From Acanthaster planci (taxonomy: Eukaryota), in the NCBI RefSeq assembly GCF_001949145.1, contig NW_019091358.1, positions 2,180,240-2,244,239 on the forward strand: a stretch of 64,000 nt of DNA. Reading direction: 5' to 3'. How positions within the stretch are numbered: position 1 is the first letter of the stretch; each line of letters begins with the position of its first letter. Below the pieces are notes generated by a model, which was not told the origin of the DNA, made no database searches, and was given only the letters and a program-made list of their open reading frames with translations. Both the position numbers and the translations under genes were made by a program. This document shows, in pieces, positions 11,683-53,600 of the stretch.

Positions 11683-11818
11683 GTCACTGTGCAGGCCACA
11701 TGTTTCACACTGACAGCCATGACAGTGGACCGTTACTATCTGATTGTGCATGCCGTGAGGTCCCGCAACACGAGAACAGTGACGAAAGCTGTGATTATCA
11801 ACGTTTTTATTTGGATAG
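11683..11818 (+). CDS. KISS1R-like: Internal coding exon (TM3, DRY, ICL2, start of TM4) of a kisspeptin-receptor-like class A GPCR
   Basis: Polypyrimidine tract and CAG acceptor (tctttgtttttctctcccacag), donor G|gtgagt. Translates as VTVQATCFTLTAMTVDRYYLIVHAVRSRNTRTVTKAVIINVFIWI plus 1 nt, resembling KISS1R VSVQATCATLTAMSVDRW...IWV. 136 nt, phase 0 to phase 1, as I recall for vertebrate KISS1R exon 3. Not in the ORF track. Confidence 0.92.
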
Positions 11819-12739
11819 GTGAGTGGTGGAAGTGATTACATGGGTAATTCACTGTGCAGTGGTCCACCAAGCGTTCTCCTAAGAAGCAGCGAGGTGTCTA
11901 ATCCACAGTTGATACTTGCCCATTTCGTTCTGCATTTCTCTTATTTATGGTTACACACAAGTACCACACAAGGAGATTGGTAGATTCAGGGTGAGGGAGC
12001 CCCACCCCTGAAAGGCAGGACTGTTTATGGGGATGATTTCATTTCCCTTCCTCCACAACACCCTTAACTTTAGTCTCACACTTTGGAAAGTCCATCAATA
12101 AACCTTCATTTATTCATGTCACCCATCAAATTGCAACCGCCAAAATAGCCCCTCCCCCGAAGAATTTTCAGTTTCAGTTGCCGAGTCCAATCGGATTTGA
12201 ACCGAGCCGGTCACTTCACTGTTTTTAAGCACTGTTTTCACTGTTAAAAAACAAGCACAAAACAAAACTCCATGGTGAGCTCTAGGTACGACGCAATGCA
12301 ATCGTGCATCCGCTGCCCCTATGTGCCCCCCAAATTCTAATATTAGAACTTAGATTTTCCCCCGTCAAAAGGATACCCATGTTTCGATTTAAAAGATATA
12401 ATATCGGCCCTTTAAGTTAAATAGGAGAGGTTACGTTTTAAGGGTGACAACAGGTGTTATGGAAATATATCAAGAATACCTGGGGGATTTTTTAAACACA
12501 GAAAGCTGTGTCGTTTTCGACGCAATGGTATATGAACTTAAACGTGTCATGACAATCATGAGTATTGTTGCATATTGACAGACAAAATAAATCAGACACA
12601 AAAAACAGATTTCAAAAGTGCAAGTCTAGAAATTCTGACTATTCACGACCACAGAGCATCAAAATGCCAAACAACACGATACACAGATTACATTCATTTT
12701 CACATCAAAATCAGCTTAATGCAATCATAATAACAAAAA

Positions 12740-12970
12740 AAAATACATCTTGATAATAGTTCGCGGTACCTGCTGCTTCACCTGACTCGGACCGGCCAGC
12801 CGACCCCGGCAAGCTCGGTGGTCGAGTGGTTAAGACATCTGCACTAGTAAGCAGGAGGTCTTGGGTTCGAGTCCTACCCGAGTAAGCTTGTGAGGTTTTT
12901 TTTTCGCAAGCTCTCGGACAAGCACTGAGCACACAGTGCTTATAAATATACGTTGGGTAAGGGCAAACCT
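12740..12970 (+). mobile_element. Dispersed ~230-bp repeat with an internal tRNA-Thr(AGT)-like segment (12813-12884), copy 1, in the GPCR intron
   Basis: A box TGGTCGAGTGG, B box GGTTCGAGTCC, anticodon arm TCTGC-ACTAGTAA-GCAGG; about 90% identical by eye to 50397-50626. Confidence 0.85.
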
Positions 12971-15762
12971 TACTATGATTATATATAATCATAAATAACA
13001 TTGCATCTTGCCTGACCAGAAGTGGTACACGAAGGTCCTGGGATATCTGACCAACAGCATCGGGTCCAAAGGAGTGGAAGAAGTCGGCCTGCCGACATGA
13101 AACGAAAGTTCAGACTATAAAAGTCTCATACGAGACGAGCATCGAGCCCGCCAAAAATTCGGAAAGTTGGTGAAACCAGCACCATAACCAGAAAGGTGAT
13201 GAAACCAGCACAACAGCCGTAGAAACCGTTTATAGATGCGGCTGCCAGCCGAACGAATATGCCACATAAAGTCCGTAGAGTCATCGGCCCGACGACGTAA
13301 AAACACTGCTGGTAGATACAGCCATCGTCAGCATGAACCCCTGGCCCAGTAAATGGTTGCTGTGCACTTGCTTTTGGGCATGTGATTAGTAAGGGGTATT
13401 GCAGTATACCTGTGTACAAACATTGTTTATTTCTGTTGAGTGTATTTTTATGTGGGGCCTTTAACAGAAGTGGTAACTTTCTTTTGCTGTCCAGTGTAGA
13501 AAAAAAAACCAAGATCGTGCGACTAAACGTTAGGACATGTCCATTCTCAACTAAAGGGGTGAATAATTAACACTGAATTCGTGACAGTATGTCCAACACT
13601 TAAAATTTTGGGTCCATTTTCGAATTCTGGCATCCCCCCAGAACGAAGACAAATTAAAGCAACGAAAAACTGTGCTAATTTAAAGGAAACACTAACCTTG
13701 TAAATGAAAGTTCCTTTTGGCAATGGTTTCCCTAAGGTCTTTCCACCTCATTACCTTTGTGACCGACTTTCGTCGGCAGTTTGCTTTCCCCCGCTCCTCA
13801 ACGTGCGTGTCCCCTGCGAGTCCGCACGTTTCCTCGAAATCGATCCCAAGCAGTGCGGTCGCTTTTATACAATGCCTAGCATTTGGTCTCTTGTTTGTTG
13901 GCGTGACATAGCCTTAGGTTGCTCAAGTACCGGAGTGAAGAGAAACAACAGACAAGCAGACGCACCACCCTCCCGACAATTGAAAATAACAAATGCTGTG
14001 TGGAGATCTCGGACTTGAAAGCACCAAAAATAAGGAGCTGTTGTATCGTACTGAACTTTAAATTCTACTATAGAGAATGATAAAAAAAAATAAAAAAATA
14101 ACGAGCTATTATAGTCCTGATGGAATACAATAGCTTAACAAATAAGTGGAGTAACAAGAACCACATTTATGTGACCCCCCAAAGAGATCCCATCTAGACT
14201 GGTTCCCAGTTCCCGCATGATCCTTTACACGGAATGTAAGGGACTTGTAGCGCGGAATAATTTCAGACGGAATTCTGACGAGTTTATGTGGAATAGAAAA
14301 TTAGCATAAAGATGCCCTCCAAAGAATGCATGAAGTCAAGCGTTTAGCCATTTCCCATTTACATATTAAATCAAGTTTATCCTACATTCCTCATACAAAT
14401 GAGCGAGAGAATTACTTGTGATATTTATTAATTTAGCCGCTATAAGACTTGATTGGAAACGTTTGATGCGAAAAGACATTACGTCAATGTGGGACTAAAC
14501 ACGGAGCTGTCATGTCGTGAACTTTAAATAGTCACCCATGACGTGTGATGCTGGTTTTGTCTCTGGTACGGCATGTGCAGATATAACATTCAAATTTAAC
14601 AGACCACATACATTTTCACAATCAAAAGCAGAATTCCCAATGCTATATTCACCATCACTTGCCTGTCAGAATCTCTTCTGTTTACCAATCGTACACAGGA
14701 GGATCTAAGTACAAGTCAAAATACACAAGCTATCAATCTGTTCCCCTGGTGCGTTACTTCTATTACACGTCTTATGGGGATAACACCACGTATACTGTTC
14801 TGAGGGAAAACTTGTTGTCAGTCTTATTAAAAGGGACTAGTATAATAGCCTCGTGGAAGCTTTCTTTGTTGAAGCGTCCAACTTTCCTTCTCGTTGAAAA
14901 AAAAATCAAGAGCCACGTTGTAACCTTTTATTCAAGTCAGATTTCCCCAGCGTGCGTGTAAAAAAATAAAAGAAAGAAAGAAATCGCTCCCCGGCTAGCG
15001 CATGCGCTTCATGAAGCTATCGGGGAACTGTCGAGCAGAAGTATTCAGATGGCAGCACGCGGACACATTATCTGCCTAGAGCTGAAGCACCTCCTCCTCG
15101 GTCGATAAGAGCAATGTTGGTAGGGAGTTTCAATTTGTTGGTAGCGTGGCGACATCAACGCGTACACTTTATAGTCGTTTGTGAACCAGCAAAGCGTAGT
15201 TCCCACCAAAGGAGCCTCTGTTACAAGGAAAATTGTGCTCTCTATTGGTCCAGCTTGGGGTTCATTCGGCGTTTTAAATGACCTATAAGTTATAATGCGA
15301 CTTAAGAGTGGGGTTTAGTGAGAGAAATGTTTTCTTCAGGTGGATATAGTGCATGCTAGCCCACAGGTATCAAAAGTTGTTGCAACTAATTCCCTCGACT
15401 TTGCTTTGGAAACTGGCTTGTCATCTTCTACTACCTCAGGGAGCTAACATAACCATATAGCCATGTTATGTTTGTATTCTCTGTAAACACACGTACCAGC
15501 TGTTTTACATACAAAGTGTGGACATTCCTTTGTTCTCCTATGGTTAAGGAATCTAGAGGAAAATGCTCCCTTTTCTCCAACTAGGATAACTCCTTTGAGC
15601 TGGATTTTTTATGAGGATTTCCTGGACTGTTCCTCTTCATTTTGCCACCTTAACAACCTTGACCCCAAAATGCCTCTGAAACTGTTTTTCAGAAAGGGAA
15701 AATCATTGTGCGGACGTGTGCGAGTCCACCCAACGCCATTGCACCTATATTATGTGGACTTC

Positions 15763-15802
15763 TTTTGTGCAGAGGTCCACACGTGTGGACCTCTGCACAA
15801 AA
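15763..15802. repeat. Perfect 40-bp spacerless palindrome
   Basis: TTTTGTGCAGAGGTCCACAC|GTGTGGACCTCTGCACAAAA. Confidence 0.97.
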
Positions 15803-16155
15803 TGTATGCCACGCCTGCAAATGCGTGTATGAGTGCGCACACAACGACCCATCAGAAGTACAGGCGACCGGCCCCTGTAATTAATTATTTGGACGGTGAC
15901 TAGTATTGGTCCCATTGTCCTTTGTTTAATTTTTGGCAACTTTAAGAATATTGCTGATCCATCATATTTGCCAATCAATGTACGTCTTTTAACCAAACCT
16001 CGCAGAGATTACATACAACGCCTTCATCGAAAGAGTGGACACAGCTAAGCACGAAACAGATGTGAATCTATTTTTATAATAGTACTAACTTCAGGTACAC
16101 AGAGTCACACCCAGCCCACTTTAATGTTGCTGCTCTTTTATTTTTATTTTAATAG

Positions 16156-16733
16156 TCTCGGCGCTGATACACTTGCCCTCAGTTGTGTTCATACAACTCA
16201 ATGAGAAGGAAGAGTGCTCCAGACTCTTCCCCCAGGGACAGACAAGTGCCAATATATATGCTGTCTTCGTGTTTGTGGTGATGTACGCCTTACCGCTCCT
16301 CGTCATCCTGTTTTGCTACACAAAAATCCTTCTTCAAACATGGCAACAGCCGGGTACCACACAGTTAACCAAGGGGGCTCAATGCCGCACCCTCACCAGG
16401 AAACGCAAAGTCACTAAAATGGTGTTCATCGTGGTGATGCTTTTCGCCCTGTGCTGGGCTCCCATTCACACCCTCACCGCGTGGCTACTCACTAACACTA
16501 CGGTTGAACCAACAGTACTCGTTGAAAACCTGAAGGGGTCCTTTTTGTGCATTGCGTACCTTAACAGTTGCGTCAACCCATTCGTTTATGCTTTCACTAC
16601 CACGACTTTCCGCAAGCGCTTTAGACATGTTCTTCGACCTCGGTGCAGCAAACTGCATGGGAAAAGTAATAGTTCTGCTATTAAAACAAACGTCGGCCGG
16701 TTAACATCTGGAAAAGAGGAATCTGTAATGTAG
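16156..16733 (+). CDS. KISS1R-like: Terminal coding exon copy A (TM4-TM7 and C-tail) of the KISS1R-like GPCR
   Basis: Acceptor ctctttta tttttattttaatag|TC. The phase-1 join to the upstream exon gives IWI-V-SALIHLPSVVF. ECL2 Cys, MYALPLLVILFCY (TM5), KRKVTKMV...CWAPIH (TM6) and YLNSCVNPFVY (TM7) are present. Open to TAG at 16731-16733. Confidence 0.85.
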
Positions 16734-16825
16734 TTAGCTGCATGCATGTGGAGACAGTGAGCCGCTGAAAGGAAACATTCTCTTTTGTAACTGTTTTCTC
16801 GTGTCTCTTTCTGTTTCTTTGGCAG

Positions 16826-17421
16826 TCTCATCCTTGATCCACCTTGCATCATTTATCTATGTTCACCTAACCGAGGATGGCACGTGCAAGAGTGATTTCC
16901 CGAATGCCCAGGTCAGTGACAAAGTCTACGGTCTGTTCTCCTTCCTCGGAATGTACATCGTGCCACTGATTTGTATAATGTTCTGCTACACACAAATCCT
17001 GATTCAGATCTGGCGGAAGACCTCGGGTGGGACTGAAAGTGCGCAGGCCCACACGCGAGCACTCCGAAGAAAGAGGAAAATTACCCGCATGGTGTTCATC
17101 GTCGTGGTATTGTTTGCCTTCTGCTGGGCACCAATTCAAATATTCACCGTCTGGTCAAGATTCAGCCTATCCGACTCCGATGAAAGCAAAGACCTTACGG
17201 TTGTCCAGAATTTGAAAGTGTCATTCGTGTGCATAGCGTACGCCAATAGCTGTGTTAACCCCTTCGTCTATGCCTTCACAACGACGAGTTTCAGGAAGTA
17301 CTTCCGAAAAATGTTTGCGACCTGTTGCAGGAGCCCGTATAAAGAGCGCACGAGTATTAGCATCAGTATGACCACTAAAACGGAGCGACTTCCACCGGGA
17401 GAGGAGGACTCGTCAATTTAA
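16826..17421 (+). CDS. KISS1R-like: Terminal coding exon copy B (TM4-TM7 and C-tail) of the KISS1R-like GPCR
   Basis: Acceptor gtgtctctttctgtttctttggcag|TC. The phase-1 join gives IWI-V-SSLIHLASF. MYIVPLICIMFCY, KRKITRMV...CWAPIQ, YANSCVNPFVY, helix 8 and a CC pair are present. Stop TAA at 17419-17421. Confidence 0.92.
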
Positions 17422-17527
17422 GAACCTATCTGTCGGCAGCTGGTGCCAGCTTATATACTGCATCTTGACATAGGACCACCAAGACTAATCAGTGTTAGGC
17501 AAACAGGATCTGCTCACATTATTTATA

Positions 17528-17533
17528 AATAAA
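17528..17533 (+). terminator. Candidate polyadenylation signal of the GPCR gene
   Basis: First AATAAA I see after exon B's stop. It lies in an A-rich run, so use is uncertain. Confidence 0.35.
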
Positions 17534-18239
17534 AAAAAAGTATTTGCAAACTGGCAAATTAACACCAGAGAGGGTACTGCAACCCAGTGAAAGTGTTCAT
17601 CTGAGGTAGAACTCTACGAGTCATCAGGCAGTCGTGTTCAGGCTGCACACGGTCAACCTGTATTTTCGAAATCTTTCAGAGTTCAACCTGCCTCTGTTTA
17701 AATGAATGGCGTTTTAAATGTGCGCTTTATGCGCTCTATCACTAATGCCTACTTTCCCTACATGAAGCGCGGATCTAGTTGAGTGTGCTAAATTTGGTCA
17801 AACACACGTCTAATATTGTGTATAATTTTAAATATGTATGAGCGTAGTACTGGTGTCATTGATCAAAGAGTAAGAGTACTTTCTAGAGAAGAGTTTTTTC
17901 GACATCAGAAGTCAAGTCTCAGAGCATTTTTATTGTTAAAGAAGTGTTCAGAGACAAGTCAGCCGAACTTCGAAGCTGTCAGTGTCTATACTCTTGAGTC
18001 TTTTCTCTTATTCAGTTCACAAGCATGCACGTACGTTCTTTTGATTGCATCAGTCGAATGCATGACGTACGTGAGTGGAGTAAATTATTGTGTAAAACTA
18101 CCGGGCATCATGGGTTATCTTCTGTGATAATGACAATGTGTATTATACCTACACGTACCGGTATACAGTGTCTTTTTAAGGTAAAGTGGTAAAGTACATT
18201 TCGTCCAAAATTAATTAATTATGACAGTAAATTGGGTAA

Positions 18240-40180: not shown

Positions 40181-41313
40181 GAGAAAGCCTCAATGCAAGA
40201 TAGTATTGATAGGAAGAAGCGCACTGATGTATTCACATTAACACTTCACACAACTGAAAATACGACAACTGGTCCACAATGTTCAAAATGAATTACAACA
40301 TGGGAGGAAAAGTGCTCACTTTTCCTTAAAGAGAAGGAATTTACTGTATAGAGGCACCATTCATAGGACATGGCAATGTGTCTGAAGAACCACATCACAG
40401 ATCAGATCCACCACATAAGATAACGTGTTTTGCTACGTGATGCAATATTTGTAGCGTTTGGTCACTCACTCTAATACACAGAAGCATTCTGTACAGTAGG
40501 GTTAGTTTTTTTGTTATATCCTTAATAGGAACAGCAAAAAGCAGCTTCTTTGAAATTGGCAAGTGGTTAAGGTCACAGNNNNNNNNNNNNNNNNNNNNNN
40601 NNNNNNNNNNNNNNNNNNNNNNNNNNNNNNNNNNNNNNNNNNNNNNNNNNNNNNNNNNNNNNNNNNNNNNNNNNNNNNNNNNNNNNNNNNNNNNNNNNNN
40701 NNNNNNNNNNNNNNNNNNNNNNNNNNNNNNNNNNNNNNNNNNNNNNNNNNNNNNNNNNNNNNNNNNNNNNNNNNNNNNNNNNNNNNNNNNNNNNNNNNNN
40801 NNNNNNNNNNNNNNNNNNNNNNNNNNNNNNNNNNNNNNNNNNNNNNNNNNNNNNNNNNNNNNNNNNNNNNNNNNNNNNNNNNNNNNNNNNNNNNNNNNNN
40901 NNNNNNNNNNNNNNNNNNNNNNNNNNNNNNNNNNNNNNNNNNNNNNNNNNNNNNNNNNNNNNNNNNNNNNNNNNNNNNNNNNNNNNNNNNNNNNNNNNNN
41001 NNNNNNNNNNNNNNNNNNNNNNNNNNNNNNNNNNNNNNNNNNNNNNNNNNNNNNNNNNNNNNNNNNNNNNNNNNNNNNNNNNNNNNNNNNNNNNNNNNNN
41101 NNNNNNNNNNNNNNNNNNCCTACATTTTCGATACCAAAAAGGATCCCAACCGTGTTCGGGTTTCATTTCTTCTAAGTGATCTCAATGTAACAGCAGTAGC
41201 GTATTCTAGTCATTGGTTAGGGTTCTGAAGTAACAGATCCAGGGGTGGCACAGTCAGGCTGCAGGCAGACTTCCAAAAAATCCCTTTTCGGGGGGGGGGG
41301 ACTTTGTTTTGTG
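40181..41313 (+). repeat. Duplicated segment copy 1 (contains 540-N gap 40579-41118), flanked by a 36-bp direct repeat
   Basis: About 93-95% identical by eye to 43959-45512 on both sides of the gaps; TTAACTAAACTGATACTCCGGCAGTGCTGGGTGAAC at 40131-40166 and 41314-41349. Confidence 0.9.
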
Positions 41314-43958: not shown

Positions 43959-45512
43959 GAGAAAGCCTCAACGCAAGAGAGTATTGATAGGAAGAAGCGC
44001 ACTGATATATTCACATTTACACTTCACACAACTGAAAATACGACAACTTAAGGTCCACAATGTTCAAAATGAATTACAACATGGGAGGAAAAGTGCTCAC
44101 TTTCCTTAAAGAGAAGGAATTGACTGTATAGAGGCACCATTCATAGGACATGGCAACGTGTCTGAAGAACTACATCACAGATCAGATCCACCACATAAGA
44201 TAAGGTGTTGTTTTGCTACGTGATGCAATATTTGTAGCGTTTTGGTCACTCACTCTTTACACAGAAGCATTCTGTAGAGTAAGGTTGGTTGTTTTGTTAT
44301 ATCCGTAATAGGAACAGCGAAAATCAGCTTCTTTGAAATGGCCAAGTGGTTAAGGTCACGGNNNNNNNNNNNNNNNNNNNNNNNNNNNNNNNNNNNNNNN
44401 NNNNNNNNNNNNNNNNNNNNNNNNNNNNNNNNNNNNNNNNNNNNNNNNNNNNNNNNNNNNNNNNNNNNNNNNNNNNNNNNNNNNNNNNNNNNNNNNNNNN
44501 NNNNNNNNNNNNNNNNNNNNNNNNNNNNNNNNNNNNNNNNNNNNNNNNNNNNNNNNNNNNNNNNNNNNNNNNNNNNNNNNNNNNNNNNNNNNNNNNNNNN
44601 NNNNNNNNNNNNNNNNNNNNNNNNNNNNNNNNNNNNNNNNNNNNNNNNNNNNNNNNNNNNNNNNNNNNNNNNNNNNNNNNNNNNNNNNNNNNNNNNNNNN
44701 NNNNNNNNNNNNNNNNNNNNNNNNNNNNNNNNNNNNNNNNNNNNNNNNNNNNNNNNNNNNNNNNNNNNNNNNNNNNNNNNNNNNNNNNNNNNNNNNNNNN
44801 NNNNNNNNNNNNNNNNNNNNNNNNNNNNNNNNNNNNNNNNNNNNNNNNNNNNNNNNNNNNNNNNNNNNNNNNNNNNNNNNNNNNNNNNNNNNNNNNNNNN
44901 NNNNNNNNNNNNNNNNNNNNNNNNNNNNNNNNNNNNNNNNNNNNNNNNNNNNNNNNNNNNNNNNNNNNNNNNNNNNNNNNNNNNNNNNNNNNNNNNNNNN
45001 NNNNNNNNNNNNNNNNNNNNNNNNNNNNNNNNNNNNNNNNNNNNNNNNNNNNNNNNNNNNNNNNNNNNNNNNNNNNNNNNNNNNNNNNNNNNNNNNNNNN
45101 NNNNNNNNNNNNNNNNNNNNNNNNNNNNNNNNNNNNNNNNNNNNNNNNNNNNNNNNNNNNNNNNNNNNNNNNNNNNNNNNNNNNNNNNNNNNNNNNNNNN
45201 NNNNNNNNNNNNNNNNNNNNNNNNNNNNNNNNNNNNNNNNNNNNNNNNNNNNNNNNNNNNNNNNNNNNNNNNNNNNNNNNNNNNNNNNNNNNNNNNNNNN
45301 NNNNNNNNNNNNNCTTACATTTTCGATACCAAAAAGGATTCCAACCGTGTTCGGGTTTCATTTCTTCTAAGTTATCTCATTATAACAGCAGCAGCGTATT
45401 CTAGTCACTGGTTAGAGTTCTGAAGTAACAGATCCAGGGGTGGTACAGTCAGGCTGCAGGCAGACTTCGAAAACAAAATCCCTTTTTTGGGGGGGGGTAA
45501 TTTTGTTTTGTG
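43959..45512 (+). repeat. Duplicated segment copy 2 (contains 952-N gap 44362-45313)
   Basis: Aligns to 40181-41313; gap edges at equivalent sequence (aaggtcac.g | c.tacattttcgatacc). Confidence 0.9.
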
Positions 45513-50396: not shown

Positions 50397-50626
50397 AAAA
50401 TACATCTTGAAAAATAGTTCGCGGTACCCGCTGCTTCATTTGACTCGGACCGGCCAGCCGACCCCGGCAAGCTCGGTGGTCGAGTGGTCAAAACATCTGC
50501 ACTAGTAAGCAGGAGGTCGTGGGTTCGAGTCCCACCCGAGTAAGCTTTTGAGGTTATTTCGCAAACTCTCGGACAAGCACTGAGCATACAGTGCTTATTG
50601 ATATACGTTGGGTAAGGGCAAAACCT
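50397..50626 (+). mobile_element. tRNA-Thr(AGT)-like-containing repeat, copy 2 (tRNA-like part 50471-50542)
   Basis: Aligns to 12740-12970; perfect T-arm GTGGG-TTCGAGT-CCCAC. Confidence 0.85.
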
Positions 50627-53600
50627 GTTATATATAAGATTATTCTTATTAACGTTTGGTCACGTGGCTATGGCGGCTTTAAATCAAACATATCTCTAAA
50701 GTAGTCTGATTCATTTGGTCAGCACTAAGTTTAATTCATGTATATATCGACCTGTATTCTCGTTACCTGCGCGAATCCTAGGTATACATTGGGCACCTAA
50801 ATGACTTGTAAATAATTTGCTTGATTTATTTAATATTTCATAACCGTACTCACAGGGACTGGGTAATTACTCGAAGTGTTAGAATTTGTTGCTTTAAGCC
50901 TATGCGGTATAGCTCAAGATAACACGGTAGCTTCTTTGTGCGAAACAGTCACTGAACTGTGTGGCACGTGCAAAGTATTCCAACCATTAGGCCTAGTATT
51001 TAGGTTCTTTTCTCATGTGTGGGGCAATTTTATTGTGGTTTGTGTCTGGTAAGTATTTCCCATGGATATTCTGCCCGTTAATCAAAATATCCTTCCAAGT
51101 AAATTCAAATTTTCTAATCTGTGAAGTTTTGCACTTTTGAAAGCACTTTGAAGCATGTAAATTATAATAACTCTTACAATCATTTCTATGTCTACAGTTT
51201 GCAAGCAAGTTTAGAGCATGTTTTATTTTGTTGTCTTATTTTTTATTTTGTTGTTTGAGCATACGTGGTTCAGCTGAAGCGCCTGGGTACATTTTGCATT
51301 GTCACTGTTCCTGCACGTATTTATTGACGTCTTTTGGCATGTTTCCTCAGACTTTCTTTTAACTACATCCTAGTCCCCATCATCTCATTTTCAGAAGCTG
51401 CATTTGCCGTCTGGCTACATCCATTAAATTCGAATATCATCAATAATTAGTTGATTTGCCCTTCTCCCTACGTCCGATTTGCCATTTCCCTTTCTGAGAC
51501 CAATGCATGCTTTGTGCCTGGACACATGCTCTCAAAGGGGATACACATTCAGTATTGCCCACTGGAGATGGGAAAGCCTCACTTTTGAGGAGTTGCCACT
51601 GATGAAATTGAAAACACCTGGGCTCTCAACTTGTGACCCCTGACCCTTGCGTCATATATATTCATTACCGTGGGTGATGCCTGATCTAAGGGTGCACCAC
51701 AGCAAATAATTTCCATTAGACAGCAGTGATAAATGTACTTCACAAATATTTTTAAAATACTCACAATTCTAACAGGTATTCAGGCTGCACAGAAAACAAT
51801 GTTCAAAATGTCCACTTTCATTTTCCTTTCAATTTTTACTGGGGTGGCCGTTGTGTTTTTGAGAGATTCTCACCCAAAGCCGACCACCTCTAAAATGAAG
51901 GACATTTCACTGCCCGGAAAAGTAGCCAAATTGAAAATGTATCCTTCTGCAAAACGGCTAGTGACACTTTCGGACCTGATTGCATCCAAATTTCTCAGAA
52001 TCGGAAACCCTGAGTCTGGGCCAGAGGTTCAGTGCCATATATTTCTTCAATTCCTAAATTCCACGGCTCTCAGGACCCTCTAATATAGAATAGTTTGATC
52101 GCATAACTTTTATTAATAAGCTCGGCTGACATATTTCTGACCTATTTATGTGGGTGCACCCCTAAGAATTTTTAAATCGAAGATTTTGTTATTCATCTTG
52201 CGTAAAATCTATTGGTTACAGGGCGTTCGAAGCGCGGAACAACATCCGCGGGGTCATGGTGGGAAACAGGCATGACAGGTTCTCATTCCCTTAAAGGAGC
52301 ATTTTCCAATTTACCTGAGAGCAATGCGCCTCCTTGACAATGTAGCATTGCGGAATCATGAAAAAATTTCATCCAGGAACGCAGTCGACTCCTGTCCGTC
52401 ACAATGAAACAAGTAGGCCTACATGATGATGCATGTGCGTGCTGCCGTGCTTAATGGCCACACTTTCAAGTCAGTTTACACGTCAGTGAAAGTCTAAAAA
52501 CTCCAAACTTAGTCGACTCAGTAATAATTACATGTATAAGCAAAGAAGAAATTCAAACGCGGGAGGTCATGAGTCGAAATCCTACATTTTGTTGACGCAT
52601 ATCCTTTTCACCAGGCTGCTCGGAAGCAACCACCATGTTTGGATCATACCATTATGCTCTAAGGGTTTATTTCCTGTTCCACACATCACACCCGGGTTCC
52701 TATAGTTTCCTTTTCTTGAATTTCTGTCGGTATATTTTAGCTGCTTTTAGGTTTACCCGTTCTTTAACGGAGACTCCCACAACATCTGCGAACACTAAAC
52801 ACTAGAAATTGGCGTCTGCTAAAGTGAAGTGCGAAGAGAAATGAACTCTTATATGATGGTCGGCCGACCATCGTAAAAGAAGAGAACTAACACTCTGTTG
52901 TTTTTTTTTCGAAAACTATAGCATCCTGGGCGGGAATATTTATAGACTGTTTGAGGTTGTTAAGTAATTTCTTTCAAGTAAGATATTTCAAATCATACTT
53001 TAGTCCGATTTAGAGGATTTTACCAATATAATGGTGTGCACTACCTTATGACCAGGAATAATGGTTAGGTATCTCAAAATAGACTTCACCCTCTTCTTGA
53101 TTAATTACAAGTGGCTAAGTTTACACCTCATTCTGAAAATGCCCACTGAAGTCGTGTAACCGCCCTTTTTTATTGCTATTGTTAATGCTGCAGCAAAGAT
53201 ATCAAGTTTCGTTTCGTCTTACATATATAGATAATGCGCAATAATGTGCTCTTTCGCACGGCTTCCGCGCTGACAAAAAGGCAAATTGACCTCCGTGTGT
53301 TGGGGCCGAATCATGAAGAGAAGCATATCACGCCATATATTACGCAGGCAGCTGACGGAGTCTCACCTGCAATTAAAATTTGATGTCAGATCGCTGCCAT
53401 AGGATGGCCTATACACTAACTGTGCACATGCCCGGTGAATTAGACCTGCTGAGTGATAACTGTTGGATTTTGTGATATGTGAAATGCGATGTCTAAAATG
53501 CTGTGGGTAACACTTTTCAGTAGTTCTCCTCTGTCAGTCTAAAGCGAACCACCAAGGCGTTTCTTTGAACTTTTGTCTTGGTGATTCTTAACTAATTAAC

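Follow-up and report, generated by a model that had tools for sequence, protein, structure and literature searches.

The locus analyzed here raises the question of whether a single kisspeptin-type receptor gene of the starfish Acanthaster planci gives rise to two receptors by joining the same upstream exons to either of two terminal exons. The window, which is the whole stretch of DNA analyzed, is 64 kb (64,000 nucleotides) long.

Gene Identity and Exon Organization

The gene is A. planci KPR7, the orthologue of the L-type SALMFamide (S1) receptor of Asterias rubens. The 64-kb window begins downstream of its first coding exon. The features found in the window are as follows.

11683..11818, + strand: shared coding exon 2 of KPR7 (TM3, DRY, ICL2 and most of TM4), 136 nt
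11819..16155, + strand: intron ending at acceptor A (TAG), with a pyrimidine fraction of 0.77 and a zone of 39 nt free of AG
16156..16733, + strand: terminal exon A, from the last part of TM4 to the stop, 578 nt, 192 aa; an intact duplicate that evolves fast and was not seen spliced
16734..16825, + strand: spacer of 92 nt without AATAAA or ATTAAA; contains B's pyrimidine tract and its CAG acceptor
16826..17421, + strand: coding part of terminal exon B, end of TM4 to stop, 596 nt, 198 aa; annotated and spliced
17422..18088, at least, + strand: 3' UTR, from contigs of RNA data sets X1 and X2

The product of exon B is XP_022095426.1, which is listed as A. planci KPR7, and exon 11683-11818 matched P0001 at residues 104-148 with 100% identity. 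Grouping with echinoderm KPR7 in a tree defines clade 3.2 (KPR7) of the kisspeptin-type receptors, and A and B both fell within the six-row starfish KPR7 clade (support of 97/93 and 93/93 in two trees). A phase 0 intron in TM3 and a phase 1 intron in TM4 are the rule for kisspeptin-type receptors (PMC9400282, section 6 and supplement 9). Exon 11683-11818, which is flanked by ag and gt and is contained in a spliced contig of X1, starts in phase 0 and ends at a phase 1 GT donor after 11818. In addition, exons A and B matched the TM4/5-TM7 part of Pfam 7tm_1 with E values of 1e-25 and 2e-28, respectively. The A. rubens KPR7 gene is listed at NC_047071.1, 18681764-18696290. ArKPR7 and ApKPR7 were described in PMC9400282 with a single terminal exon, and activation by L-type SALMFamides was established there for isoform B of A. 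rubens only. The strings "splic" and "isoform" do not occur in the main text of that paper, where an A-type exon was neither described nor tested.

Exons A and B each follow a pyrimidine tract and an AG, have TC-TC as their first bases and stay in frame, with no premature stop. Of the intron's 293 AG dinucleotides, acceptors A and B shared the top pyrimidine score of 0.77, with which one AAG site at 15549 tied. The coordinates, frames and acceptors in the preliminary description (one phase 1 donor at 11818, paralogous exons at 16156-16733 and 16826-17421, and 92 nt between the stop of A and the start of B) were confirmed, and its KISS1R-type gene is KPR7. It had also held that there is no second set of upstream exons; consistent with this, tblastn within the 64 kb detected neither a further TM3 exon nor any N-terminal or third terminal exon. 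A single tandem protein with 11 TM segments was ruled out, as A closes with a stop and B starts after that stop. An assembly artefact was likewise ruled out: the DNA of A and B is only 56% alike, and one contig spans the end of A through B. In a hexamer scan, the first AATAAA of the 3' UTR was at 17528. An ATTAAA at 16680 was not accepted as a polyA signal, as it lies inside the coding part of exon A, before the stop. Further contig pieces downstream of 18088 extend to 19500.

Divergence and Constraint of the Two Exons

The overall identity between A and B was 48% (93 of 192 aligned residues), close to the 45-50% estimated in the preliminary description, and, as had also been stated there, it was concentrated in the helices. 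The identities were 15/28 in TM5, 17/24 in TM6 and 28/38 in TM7 and H8, and were lower in ECL2 (7/21), ICL3 (6/22), ECL3 (3/16) and the tail (9/31). Synonymous sites were saturated (pS 0.776; 10 of 33 fourfold sites alike), so that dN/dS of A versus B was not computable. Met-started frames of A and B would encode 150 and 156 aa, respectively.

The residues that are invariant in the family were all found in B (37/37), while A retained 30/37 and the A-type exon of Asterias (see below) 35/37. Five of the seven residues lost from A belong to the GTESA motif of ICL3, which characterizes KPR5-7; this motif is present in B, eroded in A and nearly retained in the Asterias A-type exon. With positions taken from PMC11328905, the deep pocket was identical in A and B (5.38 Y, 5.46 M, 6.48 W, 6.51 I, 6.55 T, 7.35 K and 7.43 Y), and the pocket differences between them were in ECL2, ECL3, 4.64, 7.32 and 7.39.

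Exon A contained no stop and no frameshift. The simulated probability that its frame would survive 30 missense changes neutrally was 0.014 with an assumed indel rate, and 0.22 when stops alone were counted. Its GC3 was 108/191 = 0.565 versus 0.42 in the intron (p 5e-5), and none of 583 overlapping control windows had a GC3 as high. Exon A also formed a long branch (1.6-2.2) and was faster than the Asterias A-type exon in three of five relative-rate tests. Signs of coding constraint are present in both exons, and to this extent the earlier claim of purifying selection on both copies is supported. Exon A, however, has lost seven invariant residues, compared with none for B.

Splicing in RNA Data of Acanthaster

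The junction 11818^16826, which joins exon 2 to B, was found in four of eight RNA data sets (X1, X11, X3 and X4). The junction 11818^16156 to A was found in none of the eight, a sample that was shallow and of unknown tissue; X15 had no mapped reads and was no test. In five contig sets with B at a depth of 8-15, A was covered no further than its last 16 nt, and raw coverage of exon A amounted to ~190 bases in X14 and was near zero in X11. Moreover, a contig of X2 (16718-18088) runs unspliced across the 92-nt spacer, and most unique bins of the intron 11819..16155 had no coverage by RNA contigs. Of the splice switch proposed in the preliminary description, the B side was therefore observed and the A side was not. 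Because B alone was seen spliced, describing the two halves as interchangeable overstated their symmetry.

An A-Type Exon in an Asterias Gene Model

Four starfish are represented in the protein collection by one KPR7 model each; the model of Asterias amurensis has an A-type exon, and those of A. planci, A. rubens and Patiria have exon B. The preliminary description had anticipated that annotation would reduce the locus to a single model, and this is the case. The A. amurensis protein XP_071795131.1 (P0077) and the cloned A. rubens KPR7 (P0061) are identical at 146 of the 147 N-terminal residues that precede the TM4 intron, and past that intron the identity drops to 55%. It thus changes exon at the KPR7 TM4 intron, and its terminal exon is the closest relative of A. 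XP_071795131.1 is a predicted RefSeq model and provides a candidate A-type junction. A single-sequence AlphaFold model of P0077 had a mean pLDDT of 47 and was left unused.

In the trees, the three B exons formed a clade (98/95 and 94/91) that excluded the Asterias A-type exon, which grouped with A instead (89/78 and 90/86, both unstarred). Placement of A and B in the KPR7 clade was clear, but the clade of A with the Asterias exon was less so. An origin of A in Acanthaster only or in valvatids only was rejected in neither case (p-AU of 0.082 and 0.051). The Asterias A-type exon and A had 19 residues in common against all three B exons, and A and Acanthaster B alone had 11. Since the A-type exon stands behind the same 5' exons in the A. 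amurensis model, the terminal exon was probably duplicated in early starfish, before the split of Asterias and Acanthaster. The saturation of synonymous sites also agrees with the old duplication of the preliminary description.

The protein collection contained neither an A-type protein of Patiria nor the exact sequence of exon A, and no instance of both exons in one Asterias genome was found. Against representatives of 50% clusters, the best match of exon A was 44% (A. rubens KPR7), and the 150 matches listed included no A-type cluster of higher identity. A metagenome scan with the Asterias-type exon gave 125 pattern matches, of which none was confirmed.

Possible Roles of Exon A

On balance, and with little more than even confidence, we favor B as the main isoform and A as a rare alternative acceptor that would yield a second receptor with the same TM1-TM4. 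Splicing of exon 2 to B with skipping of A would be the default. As there is no polyA hexamer between A and B, the spacer and B would serve as 3' UTR in an mRNA spliced to A. Given the identical deep pocket, both forms would bind SALMFamide-type peptides. They would probably differ in peptide preference, with ECL2, ECL3, 4.64, 7.32 and 7.39 unlike, and in G-protein coupling, with only 6 of 22 ICL3 residues identical. The B junction, the open frame of A, its acceptor, GC3, the A-like exon of the Asterias model and the precedent of arthropod ETHR all speak for this arrangement. The missing A junction, the long branch, the lost invariant residues, the unstarred clade and the predicted nature of the A. 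amurensis model speak against it.

The switch may instead be ancestral and still work in Asterias, with exon A of Acanthaster freed from selection and silent or nearly so, as a young pseudo-exon that has not yet acquired a stop. We consider this unlikely, though a serious contender. The A junction absent from all eight data sets, the long branch with its lost ICL3 motif and the absence of the exact sequence from the protein collection are what such silencing would lead one to expect. However, the losses are confined to one loop, with TM6/TM7 motifs and the deep pocket retained; an open frame is improbable after at least 30 neutral missense changes (at most 0.014); GC3 and the acceptor were kept; and the RNA sample was shallow and its tissue unknown. 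That the four starfish have one KPR7 model each would also fit exons fixed between species, one per species, or an A. amurensis prediction that artefactually picked the nearer acceptor, without any switch within an animal. Such an explanation is improbable. Two Asterias species ~28 My apart have near-identical 5' exons and one exon type each, and the A and B types diverged before Asterias and Acanthaster did, which implies that both were long kept together; the 35/37 invariant residues of the Asterias A-type exon also argue that its translation was needed.

Least probable of all is that a separate tandem KPR7 paralogue, with 5' exons or a start of its own, has exon A as its last exon or left it as a remnant, the duplications of Acanthaster and Asterias being independent. 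Sea urchins do possess a pair of complete KPR7-type genes that differ in their N-termini (P0002 and P0016), ApKPR7.2 (gbr.187.12.t1, 167 aa) is listed beside ApKPR7 in PMC9759900, and the AU tests did not reject a lineage-specific origin. The window, however, contains no second TM3 exon, and A is located within a KPR7 intron that X1 splices out. Compared by listed features rather than by sequence, gbr.187.12.t1, with two TM segments in an out-in-out arrangement and without a DRY pattern, better matches a split-off first exon, and its 167 aa differ from the lengths of Met-started A and B.

A broader proposal can be put forward, tentatively and as a possibility that we ourselves hold in some doubt. 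Since before the Asterias/Acanthaster split, the SALMFamide S1 receptor gene of starfish may have possessed a splice switch that exchanges TM5-TM7, half of the peptide pocket and the G-protein-facing loop. The result would be an overlooked extra kisspeptin-type receptor that reads another subset of L-type SALMFamides or signals differently, a deuterostome convergence on insect ETHR-A/B; the ICL3 of the Acanthaster A form would have been rewired.

Comparison with Known Receptors

According to PMC8175484, arthropod ETHR-A and ETHR-B arise from two alternative 3' exons that encode the receptor between the end of TM4 and its C-terminus, and the two forms fall into separate clades across species. 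By this analogy, terminal-exon swap is a mechanism already known, and the novelty that the preliminary description attached to it was overrated. Similar to ETHR, a class A peptide GPCR gene with shared 5' exons and two alternative TM4-to-C-terminus exons, KPR7 has shared exons to the end of TM4 and two paralogous exons, each with its own acceptor and stop. Different from ETHR, KPR7 shows only B in RNA, and its A is fast-evolving. The likeness is one of design, not homology, and the different receptor family and phylum suggest that the exon pair of KPR7 originated independently. No report of a kisspeptin-type receptor with such a swap was found in the literature searched.

If A-type isoforms are made, the count of starfish kisspeptin receptors (11 in A. 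rubens) would be one short, and the missed receptor would be concealed in the gene of the first identified SALMFamide S1 receptor. The two forms would constitute a natural half-chimera for locating the receptor part that selects among seven L-type peptides, for which the published CHO aequorin assay is suited. An independent origin of an ETHR-type switch at the TM4 intron would also suggest that peptide GPCRs in which one exon covers TM4 to the end are prone to it. Counting reads over exon B would combine the two isoforms, and orthology is distorted where annotations of different starfish chose different exons for one gene.

A neighbouring paralogue, ArKPR6, has an alternatively spliced C-terminus (supplement 1 of PMC9400282), but there the distal tail alone varies and no TM4-TM7 exon is duplicated. 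Human KISS1R (PDB 8xgo) was the best solved relative (E 3e-55). Its TM3 and TM4 introns have the positions and phases of those in KPR7, whereas two more introns are present, TM4-TM7 is spread over two exons, and the receptor is encoded by one gene and has an RFamide ligand. At positions taken from PMC11328905, its pocket residues 4.64, ECL2 C+2 and 7.39 are unlike those of KPR7.

Exon Structure and Identity of the Receptor Gene With Duplicated Terminal Exons

In the starfish S1 receptor gene, half of the receptor is encoded in duplicate; this duplication is real and old, and has probably gone unreported so far. Exon B was a 100% match to P0001, the GPR54-like protein of Acanthaster planci (XP_022095426.1), which is listed as KPR7 in supplement 3 of PMC9400282. 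KPR7 of A. rubens was activated by SALMFamide S1 with an EC50 of 4.79 nM and by an L-type cocktail with an EC50 of 2.43 nM (PMC9400282). KPR7 has three coding exons, whose introns are in phase 0 and phase 1 (supplement 9, PMC9400282). Exon 1 therefore lies upstream, and the window covers exon 2 and both terminal exons. The coordinates proposed in the preliminary description were all confirmed:

Exon 2, 11683-11818, 136 nt, shared TM3-TM4 coding exon with a phase 1 GT donor
Exon A, 16156-16733, 192 aa, in-frame continuation of exon 2
Exon B, 16826-17421, 198 aa, in-frame continuation of exon 2

Exons A and B both started with ag/TC TC and neither contained a stop in frame. Their residue identity was 93/192, in agreement with the 45–50% first estimated. 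The conservation, described as centered on the TM segments, was indeed a feature of the helices (TM6, 17/24; TM7 plus H8, 28/38); the loops were not conserved in this way (ECL2, 7/21; ICL3, 6/22; ECL3, 3/16). Among 293 intron AGs, the acceptors of A and B had the top pyrimidine score, tied by one AAG site. The window contained neither a second TM3 exon nor an N-terminal exon, and no third copy of the terminal exon.

Homologs in Other Starfish and Age of the Duplication

The best match in the exon A search was P0033, an ENA exon translation (54%), whose cluster includes P0077, the predicted A. amurensis model XP_071795131.1. Over the first 147 residues, which end at the TM4 intron, P0077 and P0061, the cloned A. 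rubens KPR7, agreed at 146; beyond it their identity was 55%. A. amurensis and A. rubens diverged about 28 Mya (PMC11090083). In KPR6, the control from the same two species, the region from TM5 to the tail differed, by eye, at one position before the known alternative tail. A single Asterias genome presumably carries both exons.

Terminal-exon trees were built from 46 rows and from 26 of those rows, with distant and long ones omitted. The B exons of A. planci, A. rubens and Patiria formed a clade without the terminal exon of P0077, the Asterias alternative exon, with support of 98/95 and 94/91, respectively. Thus, that exon arose before the Asterias/Acanthaster split, and the proposed old duplication is upheld. 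This split occurred over 200 My ago. Exon A clustered with the Asterias alternative exon (89/78 with 46 rows and 90/86 with 26). The two have 19 residues in common that set them apart from every B exon, compared with 11 that A shares with Acanthaster B alone. Exon A was a long branch in these trees, and its later, separate origin was not rejected (p-AU 0.082 and 0.051). No A-type protein for Patiria was among the matches listed in the protein searches.

Two KPR7-type receptors were also observed in sea urchins (P0002/P0016, P0029/P0035, and P0030/P0079). In Diadema the two differ in their N-termini, which marks them as whole-gene duplicates and argues against an exon switch. Three ENA terminal-exon translations (P0046, P0047, and P0049) formed a tight KPR7-type clade adjoining the starfish clade (100/100).

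RNA Evidence for the Two Junctions and Signs of Selection on Exon A

Eight data sets of 23 listed runs, from unspecified tissues, were compared with the locus; of these, X1–X5 are presumed to be RNA. The B junction 11818^16826, in which the donor passes over A and joins the CAG acceptor of B, was found in four of the eight: in a contig of depth 14.2 (X1), on one read (X11), and as loose ends of exon 2 at the B acceptor in contigs (X3 and X4). Coverage of B in X5 began only at 16862. X2 gave a single contig, 16718-18088, without splicing, which fits either A-form mRNA or unspliced RNA. The X14 reads placed about 190 bases on A vs. about 1800 in three bins over B. The A junction 11818^16156 was in none of the eight data sets, at shallow sampling and with no reads at the locus from X15. 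Contigs lose rare forms, the raw runs were sampled to about one fifth, and junctions in them were reported from three reads upward; given these limits, B is the main form in the sampled data sets and A at most minor. Of the two junctions of the proposed splice switch, only that of B was seen.

Synonymous sites between A and B were saturated (pS 0.776, pN 0.335). Of the 37 columns without variation across 27 reference KPR5-7 rows, B kept all 37, the Asterias alternative exon 35 and A 30. The ICL3 GTESA motif accounted for five of A's seven losses, part of which may be explained by two in-frame one-codon shifts seen by eye. Moreover, A evolved faster than the Asterias alternative exon in three of five relative-rate tests. 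The losses and the faster rate would suit recent silencing, by which A would be a silenced relic in Acanthaster. Against such decay, the simulated neutral probability of an intact frame was 0.26, 0.07, 0.014, and 0.005 after 10, 20, 30, and 40 missense changes, with the indel rate set at a tenth of the substitution rate; when only stops were counted, it ran from 0.61 down to 0.14. In addition, GC3 was 0.565 in A vs. 0.42 in the intron, and no overlapping control stretch reached the value of A (0/124 in the intron, 0/583 window-wide). From its frame, GC3 and lost columns, exon A looks constrained yet relaxed or redirected; with regard to the purifying selection proposed for both copies, signs of coding constraint are present in B and, in this qualified form, in A. 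Alternative use of A in Acanthaster is moderately probable, a silenced relic is rather unlikely, and explanations other than these two are improbable.

Putative Mechanism and Receptor Consequences

With alternative use, donor 11818 would join the nearer TAG acceptor of A in some cells or stages. A hexamer scan found no polyA hexamer in the A-B spacer; A-form mRNA would thus include exon B as its 3′ UTR, making the switch an acceptor choice with a common 3′ end. The spacer also contains a donor-like GTGAG at 16757, 24 nt past the A stop, which, in A-form mRNA, could allow a 69-nt intron ending at the B acceptor to be spliced out; the sole contig crossing 16757 was unspliced.

In human KISS1R, the peptide contacts in TM2/ECL1/TM3 lie in the half common to both forms and those at 4.64, ECL2, 5.46, 6.51, 6.55, ECL3, 7.32, 7.35, 7.39, and 7.43 in the swapped half, and TM5-ICL3-TM6 is important for Gq (PMC11328905). 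Pocket positions, assigned by motif and verified on a shrew KISS1R row, were identical between A and B at 5.38, 5.46, 6.48, 6.51, 6.55, 7.35, and 7.43 and differed at 4.64, ECL2 C+2, 6.52, 6.58, 7.32, and 7.39. At ECL2 C+2, R was found in A and the Asterias alternative exon and S/S/N in the B exons. The two forms might recognize the same peptide family with altered preference and coupling, a weak prediction because several of the differing positions also vary among B orthologs.

Comparison With Known Systems

The design of swapping a receptor half is already known. ETHR-A/B of Bombyx use alternative exons 3a and 3b, from the end of TM4 to the C-terminus; these are conserved across arthropods, and the forms differ in ligand sensitivity and neurons (PMC8175484). 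No report of such a switch in a kisspeptin-type or SALMFamide receptor was found in the literature searched, which covered few subscription papers. The main text of PMC9400282 had zero matches to "splic" and "isoform," and the available part of PMC13020265 did not mention such a switch. PMC9759900 gives a 167-aa "ApKPR7.2" alongside ApKPR7. The topology given for it fits a split-off exon 1 better than exon A, but that paper may already have treated exon A as a gene of its own. Starfish KPR6 (P0021, P0023, and P0024) has two C-tails via a second acceptor in the tail, an alternative already recorded in the supplement of PMC9400282.

Repeats and Gaps Elsewhere in the Window

Two copies of a short repeat, at 12755-12976 and 50413-50631, were 94% and 88% alike by part. 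The repeat is probably a SINE, with a tRNA-like core by eye, and its very high RNA-data depth was drawn from other copies. Two further stretches, 40181-40429 and 43959-44209, were 96% alike, 3.78 kb apart and flanked N gaps 40579-41118 and 44362-45313; either tandem duplication at this site or an artifact of scaffolding may account for them.
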